Source: Escherichia coli (GTDB taxonomy: Bacteria; Pseudomonadota; Gammaproteobacteria; Enterobacterales; Enterobacteriaceae). From it: a stretch of 64,000 bases of DNA. This document shows positions 9,377 through 49,236 of the stretch, one piece after another (positions within the stretch are counted from its first letter, which is position 1; every line of letters begins with the position of its first letter). Both the position numbers and the translations under genes were made by a program. A model generated the notes under the pieces. That model was given only the letters and a program-made list of their open reading frames with translations. It was not told the DNA's origin and searched no databases. The stretch lies in NCBI RefSeq assembly GCF_044324875.1, contig NZ_CP172186.1; one strand, 5' to 3'.

Positions 9377-9785
9377 TAATCCCGGAAACGTACTTAAGGG
9401 CAGAGGGTCACCTCCTTCTGCCCTTTAACAAAATATGCTCAGGTTAAAAATCGAAAACCTTCCTGCACTTCCTGTGCCTGTTCCCGTGAGCCAAACATGA
9501 GCCGGCTTTTACCCGGAACTCCCCAGGAAATATATTCTACATCCACCCACCATTTTCCGTATTCTTCATACGGTCCGGATATCACTTTAGTGACAAATGC
9601 ATCAATCAGGTTCATTTTTACACCTTTCTGTTATTCTGCTTATTACGACCAGCAGACAGCAAATATTAAAAATAACGCGGCGGTAATGCGTATTCCGCTC
9701 TATTCGATCACGGATTGGCATCGAAGTCCGATCAGCGATTCGCATCCATTCGATCAACCGGGAACTTAACTTTTTCTACCGCTTT

Positions 9786-10565
9786 TTAACGCGTTTTTTC
9801 GCTGCTTTCCACTACCGGGGGATTTTTCCTCAGTGACTCTCCCTGAAGGACCACTCGGTGTGAGTTATGTACCAGTCTGTCCAGGATGGCATCTGCTGTT
9901 GTTGGGTTCTCCATCAGACCATGCCATTTATCTACCGGGAACTGGCTTACCACTATCGTGCTGCTTTGTCCGTAACGATCCTCTATGAGCTCCAGAAGGT
10001 CATTACACTGGGCGTTACTTAACTGTTCCAGCCCCAGATCGTCCAGGATTAGAACCTGTATTTTTTGCAACTGTTTCAGATATTTCAGCCAGCTGCCATC
10101 AACACGTCCCTGAGCCAGTTGTTCCAGTAATCGCCCGGTTCTACAGTACCGGACGCTGTGTTTCTGTCGACATGCCTGTTCGCCCAGCGCATTGGCTATC
10201 CAGCTCTTGCCACATCCTGTCGGACCGGTTATCAGCAGGTTTTTCCTGTGGGTTATGTAGTGGCCGTTCAGCAGTTCTCTCATCTGTTCAGCCCGCAGAC
10301 CTCTTGAGGCCGGATAGCGCAGCCCTTCCGGTGTTGCCTGGTATTTCAGGCCGGCATTTTTTCTCAACCGTGCCACACGGCTGTTTTCCCTGCTCAGAAG
10401 CTCGTCATCAACCAGCAGCGTCAGCCTTTCCTCGAACGACAGTTCGTCGTAGGTCTGAGGCGTTTCCCGCTGCCGTATCAGGCTCCCGGCCATCGCCGGG
10501 AGTTTCAGTTGGGTCAGTTTGTTTAACAGGTTATCACTCATACTGTTGTTCCTTCTGTCAGTGGT
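9786..10565 (-). CDS. istB: IS21-family helper ATPase IstB
   Basis: Walker A GPTGCGKSW, DnaC-like AAA+; start taken at MSDNLLNKL inside the 332-aa ORF. Confidence 0.9.
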   Translation of the reverse strand, partial: TTDRRNNSMSDNLLNKLTQLKLPAMAGSLIRQRETPQTYDELSFEERLTLLVDDELLSRENSRVARLRKNAGLKYQATPEGLRYPASRGLRAEQMRELLNGHYITHRKNLLITGPTGCGKSWIANALGEQACRQKHSVRYCRTGRLLEQLAQGRVDGSWLKYLKQLQKIQVLILDDLGLEQLSNAQCNDLLELIEDRYGQSSTIVVSQFPVDKWHGLMENPTTADAILDRLVHNSHRVVLQGESLRKNPPVVESSEKTR

Positions 10566-12204
10566 AGTAGCCCGGACCACGCAGGTTTTCATGCTCTGAA
10601 GCATATGCCGGATGTTGTTCGCCCTGGCGGGATAATGGAAGCTCCAGGTTCTCCCGATGGTGACGCAGCAGATTGTCGATAAAGCGTCTGTCAGGGGCGT
10701 TATAGTGCAGGGCAACGTAACAGGCCTTTTCCAGCCGTTCCGGGCCGTATTTTTTCTGAAGTGCCAGCAGCCCCAGAACTGCACGATAAGCCAGTTCCGG
10801 ATGGGGTTTTGCCTTCAGCATGGATTCAACCACCCGGCCTGTGGACGGGCCCGTACGTTTTCCCTGCTCGATCAGGCGTTCCGGTGTCCATGTCCCGTGC
10901 TGCCGGTGGCGCTCTGGCATGTGAAGCGGATTGGTTGTGTGTTTATATTCATGTGTGCTGCGCGGATGTTGCGCCACACACTGCCCCTTGTGCCAGAGCT
11001 GTACCACCGACTGCCCCGCCTTCAGTGACAGACGCTGACCGACCAGTTCGTGTGGAACGGAGTACCAGTGACGGGCATATTCAACGTGGTAGTCAGGGCC
11101 AACCTTCACAGCTTTGTATTCCGTGTATTCATAAGGTGCCAGAGGCAGCGGAGAGAGTGCTGGCGCATCCAGTATGCGGAAGCGTTCTGCACGGGTTTGA
11201 TTGCCGTACCCCTTCATTGGCCGGTTATTCATGTCTGTCAGTAACTCCCTAAGGCGCGCATTCAGCGCCCTGAGCGTGTGGAAGGTTTCATTACGGATGC
11301 GGGCAAGAAGCCATCGTTCAACGATGAGGACGCCGTTTTCTGCTTTTGGTTTATCTTTAGGTTTGCGTGGTCGGGCCGGGATGATAACCGTGCCATAGTG
11401 CTCAGCCAGTGCCTGATAACTGTCGTTGATGACAGGCTCATATCGATCGGCCTTTTTCACTGCGCTTCTGAGGTTATCGGGGATGAGCAGCTTCGGTACG
11501 CCGCCCAGGAAGGTCAGGCAACGGCTGTGGGCATTTAACCATGACATCATGTCCTGACCTTCGCACGCTTCAACGTAGGTATAGTTGGACGCCCCCATTA
11601 CGGCCACGAAGATTGCCACGCGGCGTATCTCACCGGTGTCCGGATTAATAACAGGAACCGTAGGACCACAGAAGTCGATAAAAAGCTTTTCGCCGGCACG
11701 ATGCTCCTGGCGCATGGAGAGACGTCGCGTTTTTTTCCACTCCCGGTAGCAACGGCAGAAGTGCGAGTATCCCATCGCTTTGTTACCCGCCTGTGCCTTG
11801 TATTCCATCCACAACAGTTGCCGCGTCACACCTGGTTTTCTCATTTCCGTATCGAAGTACAACATGTCAGGCATTACAAGCTCTGATGCAAAGGTGTCTT
11901 TGGGCGGAAAAATGAGTTTCTCCAGCGTGTCATGGGATATATCAGCAGGTAATGGCCATGACAGAGAAGAGGCTTTGAAGCGGGCAAGAACCTCAAAAAC
12001 GGTTGAGGCGCTGATGTGTAACGTCAGTCCGATACAACGGTTAGTCAGCTTCTTGTCGAACTTGAGCTGAAGGATCTTAAAACAGGTTTCCATAGTGCTC
12101 CTGGATTTTCTCTTTCTGGACATTGACGTCTCCACTGGTTTAAACACGGCAATGGAGACTGTGGTGAAAAGAGTTAATTCCCGGAGTGACTGGCAGGATG
12201 CCAA
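10558..12204 (-). CDS. istA: IS21-family transposase IstA (true start probably internal, METCFKIL at ~12093)
   Basis: N-terminal HTH, LSWPLPA motif, DDE core; 2-nt spacing to istB. Confidence 0.9.
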   Translation of the reverse strand: MASCQSLRELTLFTTVSIAVFKPVETSMSRKRKSRSTMETCFKILQLKFDKKLTNRCIGLTLHISASTVFEVLARFKASSLSWPLPADISHDTLEKLIFPPKDTFASELVMPDMLYFDTEMRKPGVTRQLLWMEYKAQAGNKAMGYSHFCRCYREWKKTRRLSMRQEHRAGEKLFIDFCGPTVPVINPDTGEIRRVAIFVAVMGASNYTYVEACEGQDMMSWLNAHSRCLTFLGGVPKLLIPDNLRSAVKKADRYEPVINDSYQALAEHYGTVIIPARPRKPKDKPKAENGVLIVERWLLARIRNETFHTLRALNARLRELLTDMNNRPMKGYGNQTRAERFRILDAPALSPLPLAPYEYTEYKAVKVGPDYHVEYARHWYSVPHELVGQRLSLKAGQSVVQLWHKGQCVAQHPRSTHEYKHTTNPLHMPERHRQHGTWTPERLIEQGKRTGPSTGRVVESMLKAKPHPELAYRAVLGLLALQKKYGPERLEKACYVALHYNAPDRRFIDNLLRHHRENLELPLSRQGEQHPAYASEHENLRGPGYYH

Positions 12205-12408
12205 TCAATGATCGGAAGCATGCCAAATCGTGATCGATTGTGATGCCAAACTGTGATCGGAGATGGATGCCAAATCATGATCGATTCGAATGCCAAACTG
12301 CGATCGATTCAGATGCCATTTTGCAGGTAAAAATGGCAATTTTTTTCATGCTGTATTTTTGCCATTTATTTTCTTTGAAATGGTTTTTTTCTTCATATCA
12401 GCAAATAA

Positions 12409-12876
12409 TTATTTCTTATTCTGTTTTCTCCAGGTCCATGGTGGTACCGGATTTTTATCTGCCCATAATCCCCGCTTCAGGGCGCGGGCATCACGCTGGA
12501 GCGGCGGGAGAGTATAGTCATTATTGTAGTCCGGGTACACCCAGGCAGCGCCGTTACGGACCTGCCAGCGATTTGCTTCTGTGCCGTCAGCGGTATAGAC
12601 CCGGCCGAGAATACGGCCATACCTGTCTGTCTGCGCGTATTGCACGGTTACGGGCTTTCCGGCCACCAGGTCCTTCAGCTGAGTGGCTGACCAGCGTCCA
12701 AAGGGCTGTTTCTTTTCCGGTGCATCAATATTAGCCAGACGGACCCTGACAGGCTTTTTGTCCTGTAATATTTCCAGCGTATCACCATCAAGAACGCGGA
12801 TGACGTGCCCCTGAATCTGTGCGGCACAGAGAGAAGCGGAAAAAATAATGGTGAGTGAAAAGATATATTTTATCAT
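12409..12876 (-). CDS. nuc: Secreted thermonuclease (staphylococcal nuclease/SNase-like) Nuc
   Basis: 155 aa, signal peptide, VIRVLDGDT and RLANIDAPE motifs typical of SNase fold. Confidence 0.8.
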   Translation of the reverse strand: MIKYIFSLTIIFSASLCAAQIQGHVIRVLDGDTLEILQDKKPVRVRLANIDAPEKKQPFGRWSATQLKDLVAGKPVTVQYAQTDRYGRILGRVYTADGTEANRWQVRNGAAWVYPDYNNDYTLPPLQRDARALKRGLWADKNPVPPWTWRKQNKK

Positions 12877-12978
12877 TTCATCGTCTCCTTTTTATTTATG
12901 AAAACAGGTGCAATTAATATTGCGAAATAATAACGTTCAGGTGTGTTTTTTTTGGCAGTGTGATACTTCACGCAGGGC

Positions 12979-13659
12979 ATGAATTCCAGTACGCTGATAT
13001 CCGTGATGATACGGCAACAGATATCCGGTGACGGTATGCAGGAACATATTGATTATCAGATTGAGAAATATCAGTTCAGGGCCAGGAATGAGTCACCGCG
13101 ACTGATGCGCCAGTGGGAAGATGTCATGCGTGAATGCCGTGATACCGGAGCAGGAGCCAGGGAGCGGCTGCGGATTGCCTTACTTAATGTTGATTATGTG
13201 ACCAGTTTTGAACTGCCGTTTCGTCTGCTGTTAACCCGGACACCGCAGATGATTGACAGCGTGCGGCGGGAATGGCAGCTCAGCCAGAAAAAAGTCGTAT
13301 TCAATGAGCGGCAGCGGGGATGTGTATACAGTCTGCAGAATGACTTATCCGGCGTGCCGGATAGCTTCAGTTACAGTCTTGCGACGCGAATACGGCGGGT
13401 GGACAGCTATGGCATGACGACGCGTTGTTTCACTGATATAGCCGGGCAGGTTAAAGCCCCGACAGCACGGCTGAAACTGGCGCTGGAAAGCGGGTTAATT
13501 GTCACCGCGCTGGATGGTCTGTTCTGGCTTGGTATTCAGCGTATTGCCGCAGATGTGCAGCGGCTGCGTCAGTCCGGAATGACAATCATCACCCGGGATG
13601 TTGAGGTCTCAGACTCGCTGACCGGAACCACACGGGTTGTTTCCGGGTACAGACTTTGA
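12979..13659 (+). CDS. Hypothetical protein, possible C-terminal DNA-binding helix
   Basis: 226-aa ORF divergent from nuc with AT-rich shared upstream region; no recognised family. Confidence 0.45.
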   Translation: MNSSTLISVMIRQQISGDGMQEHIDYQIEKYQFRARNESPRLMRQWEDVMRECRDTGAGARERLRIALLNVDYVTSFELPFRLLLTRTPQMIDSVRREWQLSQKKVVFNERQRGCVYSLQNDLSGVPDSFSYSLATRIRRVDSYGMTTRCFTDIAGQVKAPTARLKLALESGLIVTALDGLFWLGIQRIAADVQRLRQSGMTIITRDVEVSDSLTGTTRVVSGYRL

Positions 13660-13860
13660 TTTATGCAACAAAGTATCGCAGCGTCGAATATGAGCTATGG
13701 CCAGATTTTTGTTAATCGTGGTTGTTGCAACATGTAAGGCGAATGACCACACTATTCTGGTACGCTCGTAATCACGCTGAAATTCTGCTTCCTGTCCTGC
13801 CGTGATGAGTTCCGACCAGGACATACGGCGAAGTGTATGTCTGTCAGTAATATCCGTCAT
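13609..13860 (-). CDS. Hypothetical small protein (83 aa), last gene of a four-ORF cluster
   Basis: Start overlaps stop of upstream ORF; no recognisable domain. Confidence 0.35.
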   Translation of the reverse strand: MTDITDRHTLRRMSWSELITAGQEAEFQRDYERTRIVWSFALHVATTTINKNLAIAHIRRCDTLLHKSKSVPGNNPCGSGQRV

Positions 13861-14072
13861 GAGCTCTCAGCCTCCTCCTTCGTATTTCCGTCAGAAACAC
13901 AAACGCCCCGCAGAGAAAATTCGCCAACATTCTCCTTTTTAATGGCGCGCAATGCATCGCGGCAGGCCCGTTCGGTATGAAAGGCCTGGCTGTGCACCGC
14001 CAGTGTGGGCTGACGGGCATCACCGGAAGAGACATTAAAGGGCGATGAAAGCCAGAAAATCAGTAGCCACAT
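13857..14072 (-). CDS. Hypothetical small secreted protein (71 aa)
   Basis: N-terminal hydrophobic signal-like segment; coupled with neighbours. Confidence 0.35.
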   Translation of the reverse strand: MWLLIFWLSSPFNVSSGDARQPTLAVHSQAFHTERACRDALRAIKKENVGEFSLRGVCVSDGNTKEEAESS

Positions 14073-14075
14073 GCG

Positions 14076-14459
14076 TCACACCTCGTCCTTTTTATGCGGG
14101 TATCTGGACAGAATATTGAGCGCCTGTAATGGCGCTTCATGCATTTCACGGATACAACGGGCATCGGTGATATTTTCCCGGTAATGTGTGGTTTCCAGCA
14201 TCATATGATGCATATGGAGCATCCGGGCCAGGGCTGCGCGGAGTTCTTCAATATGTTGTTCATGGGAATGCTGGCGGGGCTGTATCCGGCAGAGAGGGAT
14301 AACCTCCACATCATCCGGGTGCGCGCGAAGCCACGCGTCAGTGACTGCAATGTCGTCAGTGTAAAACCATGTGCCGGATGTCCCGTTGGCCAGAAAACGC
14401 ATTTTCCAGGCTTCTGGGGTGGCGGTTGTGTTGTTATCTTTCATGGTGCCACCACTCAT
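14076..14459 (-). CDS. Hypothetical protein (127 aa), His/Met-rich segment
   Basis: ORF with ATGA overlap to upstream ORF; HMHHMMLETTHY stretch. Confidence 0.45.
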   Translation of the reverse strand: MSGGTMKDNNTTATPEAWKMRFLANGTSGTWFYTDDIAVTDAWLRAHPDDVEVIPLCRIQPRQHSHEQHIEELRAALARMLHMHHMMLETTHYRENITDARCIREMHEAPLQALNILSRYPHKKDEV

Positions 14460-14647
14460 TCAACAGGCTTAATGCTGTCCAGGCGCAGTCTGCTCAGACT
14501 GTCGTGGCTGCCACAGCGGCGTCCAGTGCTTTTGCTGTAGCACTCCTGCCCCCTGATACACCATGCCGTTGGCGTTTCGTAGAGGCTGACACGTCGGGTT
14601 TTATCTTTAATGATGAGAAGCCCGGTGTGAGTTTTTGTCTTTTTCAT
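14456..14647 (-). CDS. Hypothetical small basic protein (63 aa)
   Basis: First ORF of the coupled cluster; weak support. Confidence 0.3.
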   Translation of the reverse strand: MKKTKTHTGLLIIKDKTRRVSLYETPTAWCIRGQECYSKSTGRRCGSHDSLSRLRLDSIKPVE

Positions 14648-14901
14648 CGGTGGGGTACAAACGCAGAAATTTTGTTGTCATTACATCATCAGTTTTAGCC
14701 TGCAGAGACGCTGAAAAATCAGCGTTTTCAGACCCTGTTCAGGTTAGTGAATATTCTTGCCTGGCCTTTCGGCAATATCAATCCCCTGATGTGTGCACAC
14801 GTAGTCACTTTCCGGCTTTATTTCTGTCCCTGACACAAAATACGTGGTGGCATGAAAAGGATTGTGGCGGACAGGAAAACGATTAGAATAGCGGCGGGCG
14901 C

Positions 14902-15195
14902 TTGAGGCTGTATGCCGAAAGCGTTTTGTGGACGGCATGTAGCAGAAAGCCCCAGGCGATTTTTTTATCAATCAACCCAGGGCCCACTGTAATGCCTAGA
15001 CAACATTATAGTAGCCCGATGACGGCCGAAAGGCAATGGAGGGGCTGCGATGCCACAACGAACGTTTTTAATGATGTTAATCGTCGTCTGTGTGACGATA
15101 CTGTGTTTTGTCTGGATGGTGAGGGATTCGCTTTGCGGATTTCGTATCGAGCAGGGAAATACGGTGCTTGTGGCAACGTTAGCCTACGAAGTTAA
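14902..15195 (+). CDS. Possible pndC (mok-like) overlapping reading frame of the pnd locus
   Basis: ORF in alternative frame overlapping the Hok-family toxin gene, as in hok/mok loci; real start uncertain. Confidence 0.35.
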   Translation: MRLYAESVLWTACSRKPQAIFLSINPGPTVMPRQHYSSPMTAERQWRGCDATTNVFNDVNRRLCDDTVFCLDGEGFALRISYRAGKYGACGNVSLRS

Positions 15196-15202
15196 ACGTT
15201 AA
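15050..15202 (+). CDS. pndA: Hok/Gef-family type I toxin PndA
   Basis: Hand-translated 50 aa MPQRTFLMMLIVVCVTILCFVWMVRDSLCGFRIEQGNTVLVATLAYEVKR; GGAGG 9 nt upstream; not in ORF track (<60 aa). Confidence 0.85.
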   Translation: MPQRTFLMMLIVVCVTILCFVWMVRDSLCGFRIEQGNTVLVATLAYEVKR

Positions 15203-15339
15203 CGGGCAACACGGCGGTAGAGAATCTGCCGCCGGATTGTTGCGAAGGCTGACCTCAATGCGCCTTGTTTGTCTTTTTTACCGGACGACTGCTGGTTGCT
15301 GCTGTCCGGCAGCTATTATTTTTTCCGTCCTGTGCGTCA

Positions 15340-15555
15340 TCAATTATGACAGTCGCTCTCATTTAGTTGTCTCTGGTTAGATGTATTATTATATATTTTC
15401 GGGGTAATTCGATAAAAGTTATCCACTTCAGCACCAGACTGAATGATATATGCAATAAGATCTAAACGATGAATCTCGTATCGTGTACGTAACTCCATTA
15501 TTTCACGCCATGGAGTACCATGTCGTGCTGGAAAATTGCTGCGGGATTCAGACAT
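15340..15555 (-). CDS. Hypothetical small protein in AT-rich segment
   Basis: 71-aa ORF only; no recognisable domain. Confidence 0.25.
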   Translation of the reverse strand: MSESRSNFPARHGTPWREIMELRTRYEIHRLDLIAYIIQSGAEVDNFYRITPKIYNNTSNQRQLNESDCHN

Positions 15556-15828
15556 GATTTTATCTTTATGTTTTCTAGGTACTGCCTTGAGTGTGTGGAT
15601 ATGATAATTATTTATAATGATATTGTTATCTTTTATAGATAACTGATATGCAGAATTGTATTGATTTTGTCTACAGTGGGCAAGACAGTGCTAAGAATTT
15701 GTGGGGAAAACATAGAGACTCCATGCTGCGTCCTGAGATAGACGGCAGACAGGCATTCTGCCTGAAAAGAAAAAGCCGGTTCAGAGAAAACCGGCTGACG
15801 GATTATCGTCTAACAGTTGATAGCTACC

Positions 15829-16476
15829 TCAAAATACTTCTGCAACAGGAACACCGGCAACTTTTTCCCACTCTTTAACCCGATACCGGATCATCTGTGG
15901 GAAACGTTCCTTGTACTCATATCCACGTGCAGCCATGGTGTGCATGGTGTTGGCCAGCGTCCTTGCTGAGATGCCGGAGATCTCAAGAGGAATCATCGGC
16001 AGACTCACATAGGTGGTGTGGATTTCCAGCTTGCCGTCCTCAGCAACCGTGCGGGTAAAGTTGTGAATATCCAGACCAATCACATCCATCACATTGTTTG
16101 GATAAATACGCACATACAGCATGGTGCCGTTTTTAATGTCGATCCCGAAATAACAACTCTTCGAGAATGACAGTTGCTCATAATCGCTGGTCGGCGCAAA
16201 GGGACTGCTTTCTTTTATCTGCTGAACAACCTGCTGGACTTTCTTTTTCTTCGCCCTGGTTCTTAGATATAGCCAGAGTAATGGGAGGATAATCAGCGTT
16301 GAACATCCATATGTTATCATATAGATATTAGGGGAGGAGTATCTGGCGTAGCTAATACTTAATGTACCTAATATTGCATATATTAATAGGAATGGTATTC
16401 CAATAATAAAATAAGCATTGCGGATCAGGTAATAATATGCCCACCAGGAAGGATATCTGTTTTTTGTTGTACTCAT
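15829..16476 (-). CDS. Inner-membrane protein, putative entry-exclusion ExcA-like
   Basis: 215 aa, N-terminal TM helices, AT-rich, immediately downstream of traY as excA is in IncI1; assignment by position. Confidence 0.45.
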   Translation of the reverse strand: MSTTKNRYPSWWAYYYLIRNAYFIIGIPFLLIYAILGTLSISYARYSSPNIYMITYGCSTLIILPLLWLYLRTRAKKKKVQQVVQQIKESSPFAPTSDYEQLSFSKSCYFGIDIKNGTMLYVRIYPNNVMDVIGLDIHNFTRTVAEDGKLEIHTTYVSLPMIPLEISGISARTLANTMHTMAARGYEYKERFPQMIRYRVKEWEKVAGVPVAEVF

Positions 16477-44591: not shown

Positions 44592-44949
44592 GGTGTATTT
44601 TTCCTGAGCAGTGAAAGAAGAAAGCGTTGTGGGGAGGATTTACTGGTTCGTGTTTTTGCTGAATGGCTGGAACACCTCAGAGGGTGACAGTGCTACCCGG
44701 ATACAAATATCGTTTGCTATCACGATATTACATTCGTTAGCTGTCGGATCCCGGAACGGTTCCACCATAAAGGCTTTGTTTTCGATATGCGTTTTATTTT
44801 TGTTAAACATGCATTTCCTCATGCGAAAATGATATGTCAGATAACAGCCAGATCAGAGGCAGCACTACAGGTCTGGCTGTGTCGTTTGATGGTCGGAAAA
44901 CGCGAGGATGCAGGTCTGGATACCCCGGTCAGTACCGGGGCAGAGATGA

Positions 44950-46152
44950 TCAGAATGTGAACTGCAGTTGTGCAACGGCACCGTAGTTGTTGTCTGTGCC
45001 TGCTATACCCGCCACATCAATATGGACGACATCAAATGGTGAGATACCCAGCCCGGCGGTGAACGCACTGCCATCATTGCTGGCCAGATTCTGGCGGTAG
45101 CCTGCACGTAACTGTGCCCATTTCCAGGCATTAAATTCAGCACCAATGGCAGCAAACTGACGTTTACTGTCTGATGTGAAGCCACTGGCCGGGGTCAGGT
45201 CAACATCCAGTGCTGTAGTGAACATGTCGTTGTGCCAGGAGACACCGGCAGTCACCTGCGGGCGGATCCTGAAAGTTTCAGTGACACCGTTCACTTCTTT
45301 TGTCTCAATACTGCGGGGGAGCAGGTTCTGTGCGACCAGACCCAGTGTCCAGTTGTCATCCAGGTCCATGCTGGCCCCGATATCAGCGTTAATGCCGTTT
45401 CTGGTGTTGTGGTAACGGTCGCCTTTGAAAGCGCTGCTGTCGTAATTTTTAACCAGCACGTTGTAGCTAAACAGGTCAACACGCTGGAATTTTGGTGTGA
45501 AGCCCAGAGACCACTTTTGTCCGGCCGTTTCCAGTTCAGTAGCCAGAGCAATACCCACATCGGTGACCAGTGCGGCACGGGCAAAAGCCTGAGAGGTCAG
45601 TCTGTCTTTATCCACATCCTGACCGTTACTGTTTGCAATGCTTTCCAGATAGTTCAGGTCGGCATCACTGACTTTACCGTCGACACTGACCGTACCGTAG
45701 CTTTTCAGCATCAGAGCGGCAGCGAGGGTGTCACCGGGAAGAGTCGCCACAGCAGATGTTCCCACCTGTGCGTCAGCATGCGTGTGACGGAAGTCCTGAA
45801 GTCGCGTCTTCAGACGTGCAGCAGTCTGCGACACGTTGCTCTGACTGTCGATGGCACGATCAAAGGCTTTCCAGTCATCACTGATTTTGTCTGCGTTGTC
45901 ACTGATATTACCCGGATCGGACAATTGCCCACCAACGGACGGAATCAGAAGACTGAAGTCATCTTCCGGACCGGCTTTTGTCAGCAGGGCCGGGTTTGCC
46001 AGAGGTGCCACACCGTAGTGAGAGGAGGCTACCCCGGTTCCCCCCATTGCATCATTGCGGGCTTCAAAATATGAAGTTGCGGCTGTTGAATTAAAGGAAA
46101 ATAAAACAGCAGATGCGATGAGAGTTCGGGTAATGTGCATATTCATCATCAT
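44950..46152 (-). CDS. Outer-membrane beta-barrel protein (traG/traF position)
   Basis: Signal peptide after internal Met, alternating-hydrophobic strands, C-terminal aromatic QLQFTF. Confidence 0.55.
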   Translation of the reverse strand: MMMNMHITRTLIASAVLFSFNSTAATSYFEARNDAMGGTGVASSHYGVAPLANPALLTKAGPEDDFSLLIPSVGGQLSDPGNISDNADKISDDWKAFDRAIDSQSNVSQTAARLKTRLQDFRHTHADAQVGTSAVATLPGDTLAAALMLKSYGTVSVDGKVSDADLNYLESIANSNGQDVDKDRLTSQAFARAALVTDVGIALATELETAGQKWSLGFTPKFQRVDLFSYNVLVKNYDSSAFKGDRYHNTRNGINADIGASMDLDDNWTLGLVAQNLLPRSIETKEVNGVTETFRIRPQVTAGVSWHNDMFTTALDVDLTPASGFTSDSKRQFAAIGAEFNAWKWAQLRAGYRQNLASNDGSAFTAGLGISPFDVVHIDVAGIAGTDNNYGAVAQLQFTF

Positions 46153-47063: not shown

Positions 47064-47322
47064 TTCACCTCCGTGCGGTTCATATGTTAAGTCTAAAGAG
47101 CGTGTTTACTGAACGGAAACGAGTTATTTCGATCGTTATGATCGAGTGTGTTTCAAGAGTGCTTTTAACTCTGTTTTAAGCGTGAATGAAAAGGATTCGG
47201 ACAGGACGTGATTTAGTATGCCGCTGGTCTGGCATTATGCTGCAGAGCAGACGGAGTCAGGAGATTGAAAGTATTTCGTTATATAATCTTTTCCTTTTCG
47301 GGATGAAATCAACGAGGTTCGT

Positions 47323-47643
47323 ATGAAAATTAAACAGCATAAAGAAAAACTGGAGATTATAAGGGATATTATTCGAGAGACGCTGTTGGGTAATGCTGCT
47401 CTTATTGTTCTGGCAGCCATGGTTCCGGTTGTACTGGTGAAACCATGGGATTCGATGACATTTATTTTTATGGGGGCCGTGTGTGTTTCTTTTGCAGTCA
47501 TTCTGTTTTGGCTGGTTTATATAGTTTGTTTGTATATAGGAACGCTTGTAAAGAATATTTTTATAAGGATTTTTGCTTTTTCTATTTGGGCCCTTTCTGC
47601 TGAGGGGGCAATTATTTATAACATGATAAAGATATTATCATAG
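47323..47643 (+). CDS. Hypothetical small membrane protein
   Basis: 106 aa, 2-3 TM helices, AT-rich, opposite strand to backbone. Confidence 0.35.
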   Translation: MKIKQHKEKLEIIRDIIRETLLGNAALIVLAAMVPVVLVKPWDSMTFIFMGAVCVSFAVILFWLVYIVCLYIGTLVKNIFIRIFAFSIWALSAEGAIIYNMIKILS

Positions 47644-47734
47644 AAAAGTTGTTTATATATTGGCTCTATGTAAAAAGAATGGTACCTCTGCCAGAGTTCC
47701 CGGCGTTATTTTTATGTGTTGGGGCCATGAATGT

Positions 47735-48055
47735 TTATTTGGCATCCCTTATCTCGCCCATTAGCAGGCGGATACGCAGCCAGGTGTCATGATCCAGAAC
47801 AGGTGATGGTGTTACCATGCAAGCACAGTGCCCGATGGCGAGCGTATCAAGGAAGCGTTTTGCATCGCTGGCACTTTCATATTCACCAGTATGGATCAAC
47901 ATCCACCTTTGCCCCAACGCTGATTCGGTGTGAATTGGTTGCGAGAATGCGATTGTGTAAACGTCTTCAATTGTAACGATACGATTATTATCCGCAGTGG
48001 CTGCACGGGAGGATAAGTGTTTCATAAAGGGTCTCATAGCGTTAATTTTGAACAA
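47735..48055 (-). CDS. Hypothetical protein downstream of rci
   Basis: 106-aa ORF; no recognised domain. Confidence 0.35.
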   Translation of the reverse strand: MFKINAMRPFMKHLSSRAATADNNRIVTIEDVYTIAFSQPIHTESALGQRWMLIHTGEYESASDAKRFLDTLAIGHCACMVTPSPVLDHDTWLRIRLLMGEIRDAK

Positions 48056-48066
48056 AAATTATTTGT

Positions 48067-49236
48067 TCAGGAGGAGGATATGAAAATACTGTTCGCTTTT
48101 GTCATGAACTGGCTGTTTGTTAACGGACAAATCATGACCCGTTCATCAATGTTTGCGGGTAGCTCGCCTGGTGTGGGGACGCGTTCACCCCGCTGAGCAG
48201 CCTGGGCCAGTGCGCGCAGCAACAATACGCTGGCGTGAGATATTGCCAGTTCCCGGGTTTCAGCACGGCTTTCAAGGTCGAAATCGTGCAGTGTCACAAT
48301 GAACACTCCGTTTCTGTTTCTGACAGTTGCAGGGTAGGGAACAAAATAAGGGGAAATTTTGCTGGTCTGTTTACGCCTTGCATCGAGTTTACTGACCAGG
48401 TGATATGCCCGGAGATGTGTGTACCGTTTCAACATGTTCAGGGAGCGGTGACCGGAAATGGCTGCAATCTCCATAACGTTCAGTGTGCCGAGCTCGAACA
48501 GACGGCTGATGGCCTCATGGCGGAGATCGTGAAAATGCAGATTTTCTATTTTCAGATCCAGAAGAGCGGTACGCCAGGCGCTTTTGAAACCGGACGAGGT
48601 GTAATTGAACACATTGCCGTTTATCTGTTGTGGCAGAATTTGCAGGTAGTTACGTGCTTTCCGGGAGAGTGGTACGTCGCGTGGTGAGCCATTTTTCGTT
48701 TCAGGAAGATGCGCCACGCCGTGCTGCAAATCGAGGTGTTCCCAGCGTAATGAGAGAATTTCTCCCTGGCGCATTGCTGTTTCCAGAGCCAGATGGAAGA
48801 TAACGTAGAGCTGCGGATTTTTGTCCCTGAAATAGCGGGAAAGGCGGCGTTCTTCACCAGAAGTCAGTCGGCGGTCGCGGCCATTACTGATTTTCGGTTT
48901 TCGGACCAGTTCAACAGGATTCATACGGCATGTTCCCCATTCCACACGGGCGATATTGAATAATGATGATAAAAGGGCAAGTTCAAGACGGACGGTATTT
49001 CCGGTGATTTGACGCCCTGTTCGTGGGTTAATTTGAGCTAAACGCTGATCCCGGTAACCGGCGATATCAATGGTAGTGATTTCATCCATATAGCGCTCGG
49101 CCATAGGGTGACGTTTAATCACATTGACGCGATAAAACTCCTGCAGATGACCTTTTTTATGGACGGAAACGGTTTTCAGGTATTTGTCCAGCGCCCGGTT
49201 GAGAGTCATTTTGCGAATTTTGATTTTTCGAAACAT
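48067..49236 (-). CDS. rci: Shufflon-specific tyrosine recombinase Rci
   Basis: Tyrosine-recombinase C-terminus (HDLRHEAIS...[14 protein letters not shown]); adjacent to 19-bp repeats; start taken at MFRKIK since the ORF-track start overlaps a repeat. Confidence 0.85.

Follow-up and report, generated by a model that had tools for sequence, protein, structure and literature searches.

Among the closest known systems, several single-chain proteins carry winged-helix domains in tandem, namely the SelB C-terminus, TFIIIC tau138/GTF3C1, ScpB and the iteron-binding Rep proteins, the last of which have two such domains in one chain. A further set, comprising the BirA N-terminal domain, ArsR/SmtB, MarR and Stf76 of the plasmid-virus pSSVx, acts as homodimers, which have dedicated elements for dimerisation and, in many cases, ligand-binding parts, and the HTH_39 proteins of phages and prophages (PF14090, about 70 residues) are single-domain proteins that themselves have no established function. 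The ECs1377 family has a name but is uncharacterised, and ECs1377 is listed as a hypothetical protein in the sole literature mention that we found (PMC1890555). In this study, we have described a plasmid-borne member of this family, encoded on the + strand of a 64,000-nucleotide stretch of Escherichia coli contig NZ_CP172186.1 (hereafter, the window), with a predicted coding sequence at 13036-13659. The reading that we consider probable is that of a stand-alone tandem winged-helix DNA-binding protein, with its own promoter, acting in trans on targets other than its neighbours.

The predicted protein matches the NCBIfam equivalog model NF052300 ('ECs1377 family protein') from position 2 to position 190 of 190 with 300.6 bits (cut-off 190; E value 3.4e-90), a full-model score above the curated cut-off that identifies it, by sequence, as a member of the family. 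The preliminary description had spoken of unknown function; this holds in the literal sense, although the gene has already been catalogued, both through NF052300 and under the RefSeq product name 'helix-turn-helix domain-containing protein'. Its C-terminal 61 residues (146-206) match Pfam HTH_39 over profile positions 6-66 of 70 with 23.8-24.4 bits, so that the protein's own sequence passes the gathering cut-off of 21.3 bits marginally, and the same domain was matched in 25 of 27 diverse family members (best E value 5e-6). Pfam gave no match to MarR, HTH_5, HTH_20 or HTH_11, no effector domain was found in the protein, and the only PHROGs match was phrog_24243, whose function is unassigned. 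Sequence searches of solved structures returned none from the single protein and only chance SNAP29 matches from the profile (E value >0.2), and PADLOC-DB 2.0 yielded no defence family at E values up to 1 for the protein or its three downstream neighbours. The plasmid copies form a group of their own, with roughly 87-100% identity, and are about 65% identical to the chromosomal copies; those from E. coli chromosomes are 64% identical and of equal length.

The fold was predicted with AlphaFold2 from a 27-sequence alignment, and the resulting model is confident (predicted local distance difference test, pLDDT, 93.7; predicted template modelling score, pTM, 0.86). It contains two canonical winged helices, residues 41-99 and 142-206, each following strand(s) and a helix, and each with the order alpha1-beta1-alpha2-alpha3-beta2-beta3 that defines the fold, that is, a three-helix bundle with a helix-turn-helix and then a beta-hairpin wing. 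In the model, the chain opens with residues 1-40 (13036-13155, +), comprising beta strand(s) 4-16 and helix 21-37 (pLDDT about 90), ahead of the first winged helix at residues 41-100 (13156-13335, +; helices 41-51, 59-64 and 69-80, hairpin 83-99). Residues 101-140 (13336-13455, +) provide a second strand-helix lead-in (strand 113-123, helix 129-138), which is followed by the second winged helix at residues 141-207 (13456-13656, +; helices 142-151, 158-165 and 170-179, hairpin 185-206), corresponding to the Pfam HTH_39 domain. The first winged helix is cryptic: it has no Pfam match of its own and emerged only when structures and profiles were compared, and it holds the most conserved stretch of the family, LPFRLLLTRxPQ. 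When the N-terminal half was compared with the C-terminal half by hhalign, residues 40-88 aligned with 141-190 (E value 3.6e-4) and, because the two halves align, the protein is an internal duplication, a single-chain pseudo-dimer.

Structure prediction had been proposed as a check in the preliminary description, which regarded the C-terminal segment as helix-rich and possibly DNA-binding; the HTH_39 winged helix and the model agree with that view, and the model would extend it to the N-terminal half. The protein is basic (24 kDa, isoelectric point (pI) 9.6), as are both winged-helix domains (pI about 10; 10.4 for the first), and Arg/Gln residues are conserved at the recognition helices, features that lend indirect support to a role as a DNA-binding transcription factor. 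Foldseek searches against PDB and BFVD returned domain-level matches only, with no full-length match. The duplicated strand-helix-winged-helix unit and its lack of a full-length counterpart among solved or viral predicted structures are, in this regard, modest new points.

An ATG-to-stop open reading frame (ORF) of 226 residues is present at 12979-13659 (+), divergent from nuc (12409-12876, -), exactly where the preliminary description had placed it. Its length is unexpected by chance, because shuffled windows yield 0.23 ORFs of at least 226 residues each. The ratio of nonsynonymous to synonymous substitution rates (dN/dS) is 0.14 against the 89%-identical copy of plasmid pTA142-2, comparison with a homologue from an E. 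coli chromosome gives about 0.1, and homologues number in the hundreds; these comparisons indicate a real gene under purifying selection. The translated start, however, is most likely the ATG at 13036, which gives a protein of 207 residues (13036-13659 with the stop) in place of the 226-residue frame. Plasmid pTA142-2 has no ATG corresponding to 12979, and its version of the 19-codon extension is put out of frame by a 1-nt indel, whereas the 25 nt before the ATG at 13036 are kept (CAACAGATATCCGGTGxCGxTATG), with a Shine-Dalgarno-like GGTG(A/G) motif, GGTGA in the window, just 5' of this codon. RefSeq likewise annotates the gene as 624 nt, and all of the 65%-identical homologues open with MxxxIDYQIEKY at the methionine of 13036. 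The in-frame upstream extension (12979-13035, +) is probably untranslated and would represent 5' leader or promoter-proximal DNA.

Homologues away from the plasmid backbone provide a view of the gene in other settings. Chromosomal copies of E. coli lie in CP4-like genomic islands, of which the ECs1377 locus of SpLE1 is an instance, with neighbours that include AlpA, Hha, YagK/YfjJ-like, DUF7828 and DUF4222 genes. By megablast, a chromosomal paralogue was found in 2300 of 5426 complete E. coli genomes (42%), with up to five copies per genome. A Vibrio homologue is carried by a plasmid resembling an integrative and conjugative element, and the viral records with a homologue amount to one phage record (Erwinia LS-2018a) and 7 IMG/VR contigs. 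In a scan of one genome per species, which gave 97 relatives in Enterobacterales and 80 loci that were kept, the gene has no conserved partner: none of the neighbouring protein families recurs in more than 11 of the 80 loci. A linkage to type VI secretion or fimbrial genes, suggested by the first few chromosomal contexts, was rejected, since tssB lies near 4 and an usher gene near 5 of these 80 loci.

An upstream TGGTAAAGT element (extended -10-like) and a Shine-Dalgarno motif, about 40 nt ahead of the start, are conserved among the chromosomal copies whatever their neighbours; the constancy of this upstream block across contexts fits a self-contained transcription unit. The promoter-like TGGTAAAGT element of the chromosomal copies gave no alignment to the upstream region of the plasmid gene. 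A block of the form CTT(T/C)CGG ... CTGGTAAAGT ... AGAAGGGAA was also seen about 40-90 nt upstream of chromosomal ECs1377-family starts, across unrelated insertion contexts, and an imperfect CTGGT(N27)ACCAG inverted repeat, which might be an autoregulatory operator, spans their -10-like element. Separately, Yersinia pestis pS96127 and Erwinia phage LS-2018a belong to a phage-plasmid family of ~34 kb whose homologue is 44-47% identical. Their early operon consists of rep, an ANR (AraC negative regulator) gene, a PD-(D/E)XK nuclease gene, RecT, a small ORF and, in last place, the homologue; nowhere else does the gene seem to be part of an operon.

On the reading that we consider probable, the gene would be transcribed from a promoter of its own, lying no more than about 70 bp before the ATG at 13036, and its product would bind double-stranded DNA as a monomer. 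One recognition helix per domain (about residues 69-80 in the first, 170-179 in the second) and the hairpin wings would contact a bipartite, probably asymmetric site; the modelled pseudo-dimeric architecture is what makes such recognition by a single chain probable. The protein would then act in trans as a transcriptional regulator, with plasmid or host genes, rather than its neighbours, as targets.

The plasmid setting bears on the first alternative. The locus lies within the transfer region of a conjugative plasmid of the I-complex (IncK2/Z). A 2.2-kb query around the ORF matched 497 plasmid records, mostly from Escherichia and Shigella and 100% identical at best; the examples examined are of IncK2/Z type, with relaxase MOBP and mating-pair formation MPF_I. 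In intact relatives the gene order is trbC-dsbC-trbA, dqlB, a 58-residue gene, nuc (-), the gene described here (+), three small genes (-), pnd/hok (+), excA, traY, traX and traW. The gene is a solitary accessory gene of the variable trbA-to-pnd/excA segment and belongs to the very few + strand genes of a region otherwise transcribed on the - strand. This rare orientation, and the position among the transfer genes, with trbA on one side and excA/traY on the other, would suit a regulator of nearby plasmid functions, directed at the convergent small genes (13612-14647), at pnd/excA or at tra genes, and thus a modulator of conjugation or maintenance.

We nevertheless regard such a local role as improbable. 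In the 89% plasmid variant the downstream small genes are replaced by unrelated ones, a DUF2569 and a phosphoethanolamine-transferase gene, while the gene itself is kept; because of this replacement the segment is a variable cargo slot, and the earlier suggestion of a regulator of the downstream cluster, whose genes are convergent, finds no support in the comparisons. The small genes downstream on the plasmid showed no homology to the genes that adjoin the copies in islands or phages, so that a module shared by the plasmid and the islands was also rejected. Moreover, no IncI1-typed record occurs among the examined hits, which are drawn from only 532, and this suggests, with no direct check, that IncI1 transfer proceeds without the gene.

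It is also unlikely that the protein is something other than a DNA-binding regulator, with its winged helices forming a protein- or RNA-binding scaffold, such as an adaptor or an anti-defence or inter-element competition factor, against a conserved component of the host or of a rival element. The failure of any PADLOC defence model to match, together with the lack of an effector domain and of a conserved partner gene, argues against this possibility, and a basic pI combined with an HTH_39/BirA-like recognition helix is typical of DNA binders.

A more speculative proposal, to which we give little weight, is that the ECs1377 family represents an unrecognised class of single-chain pseudo-dimeric winged-helix proteins, carried as solitary cargo with their own promoter on plasmids, islands and phage-plasmids, and perhaps acting on a conserved target of the host or of rival elements. 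Were this the case, these proteins could be counter-silencers, cross-talk regulators of horizontally acquired loci or inter-element competition factors, and the nearly invariant LPFRLLLTRxPQ stretch of the first winged helix would recognise one conserved DNA sequence or protein common to all Enterobacterales hosts.

The divergent neighbour nuc (12409-12876, -; 155 residues) is a staphylococcal-nuclease homologue (PF00565, E value 6.5e-22) of the thermonuclease family with, judging by its sequence alone, an apparent N-terminal signal peptide. With the start at 13036, the spacer between the two genes is therefore 12877-13035 (159 bp, 40% GC) and must hold both promoters; within it, 12877-12978 is AT-rich, as previously described (36% GC, versus 52% for the window). 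A dedicated regulator that binds this shared spacer and represses or activates nuc, and perhaps itself, is hardly likely in our view. The divergent arrangement around a short AT-rich spacer speaks for it, as does the partial conservation of the spacer between the 100% and 89% variants. Of the 532 plasmid records in which the gene was found, 486 have it contiguous with nuc, at nucleotide identities as low as about 80%, so that the pairing is conserved to this extent; yet all of the plasmids with the pair that were examined in detail, typed IncK2/Z or IncI-gamma/K1, share one I-complex backbone, and adjacency was not found beyond it. At least 5000 plasmids carry nuc homologues without this gene, for example within a tra operon (IncX5 plasmid) or flanked by ANR and hha genes (IncF plasmid), and none of the roughly 90 non-plasmid loci with a homologue has nuc beside it.

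A consensus scan for sigma-70 sites on both strands of 12877-13035 gave none, and nothing convincing was seen as a shared operator, with no palindrome or direct repeat conserved between the variants: GATATCCG, present twice, and imperfect inverted repeats of 9-14 nt are not conserved in pTA142-2. In addition, the IncK plasmid pCT, which is described as stable and conjugative (PMC3377399, PMC4083329), has an IS21-family insertion sequence (IS) inserted in this very spacer. The insertion point corresponds to window positions 12964-12969 (6-bp target duplication ATACTT), only 10 nt upstream of 12979 and 67 bp upstream of the ATG at 13036. In pCT, nuc and the homologue of the gene (44698-45321) are 2.6 kb apart and both intact, which argues that they need no uninterrupted shared control region; from this insertion, we infer that the gene promoter lies in the proximal 67 bp and that of nuc in the other 87 bp. 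All together, these sequence comparisons make nuc look like a syntenic neighbour inherited with the plasmid backbone, and they give no sign of the regulator-target pair that the preliminary description had envisaged.

The weakest alternative, a role in replication initiation or partition akin to that of the iteron-binding Rep proteins, is effectively refuted: the two winged helices per chain and the location of the Yersinia phage-plasmid homologue a few kb from a rep gene recall such proteins, but neither a Rep-family sequence or structure match nor an association with an origin or iterons was found.

A few observations concern the surroundings of the gene. The window carries its own copy of the IS21-family element, 99.7% identical to that of pCT, at 9687-12325 (2,639 bp; 'ISSso4 family' in RefSeq), separating the 3' end of nuc from the dqlB side, with TG...CA ends and a 5-bp GGTAA target duplication. 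It comprises istB (about 9786-10541, -) and istA (about 10558-12093, -), with 'GATGCCAAAT/CGTGATCG'-like terminal repeats at 12200-12310; because its sites in the window and in pCT differ, the element has moved independently within this plasmid lineage. On the other side of the gene, an unannotated 83-residue ORF (13612-13860, -) is convergent with it and overlaps its last 48 nt. This ORF is weakly ANR-like (NCBIfam NF033650, E value 0.007, below the cut-off; BLASTP E value 0.004 to the annotated ANR protein of Yersinia pS96127), and ANR genes adjoin nuc in an IncF plasmid. The frame could be either a genuine small regulator that annotation overlooked or a product of chance. The small conserved hypothetical genes between the gene and pnd lie at 13857-14072, 14076-14459 and 14456-14647 (all -); the 71-residue one corresponds to phrog_3766 (E value 2.5e-11), and the other two have no match in Pfam, NCBIfam or PADLOC.

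The possibility that the gene described here is pCT_066, the 'putative sigma factor' of pCT inactivated by Cottell et al., was considered and rejected, as the two are different genes. The confirmation primers for pCT_066 (amplimer 1289 bp) map to pCT 47320-48609, beside pndACB and inside a 1587-nt TnsA-N-domain gene (47259-48845). This gene (528 residues) lies between pnd and excA in pCT and p14EC033g and is absent from the window (about 14700-15830); current RefSeq annotation suggests that pCT_066 encodes a protein with an endonuclease domain rather than a sigma factor.

For the window itself, the gene is of limited importance: the plasmid backbone that carries it is well sampled, its product is a catalogued, uncharacterised helix-turn-helix protein, and there is no pointer to an unusual mechanism. 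The family, on the other hand, is very common, being present in 42% of complete E. coli genomes and on hundreds of IncB/O/K/Z-type resistance plasmids, which makes it a candidate for work on plasmid-host cross-talk.

Compared with the systems introduced above, the likeness to the ECs1377 family extends over the full length (189 of 190 profile positions), with the plasmid copies standing apart as their own identity group. Foldseek aligns the C-terminal domain with the single-domain phage proteins of ~70 residues (root-mean-square deviation about 2 A, TM about 0.8 relative to the target), whereas in the present model the domain is duplicated, a strand-helix element precedes each of the two copies, and the first is too divergent for Pfam to recognise. 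Unlike BirA, ArsR/SmtB, MarR and Stf76, the protein is predicted to have its two domains fused in one chain, with no sensor domain, an organization that it would share with SelB, TFIIIC tau138/GTF3C1, ScpB and the other single-chain tandem winged-helix proteins.
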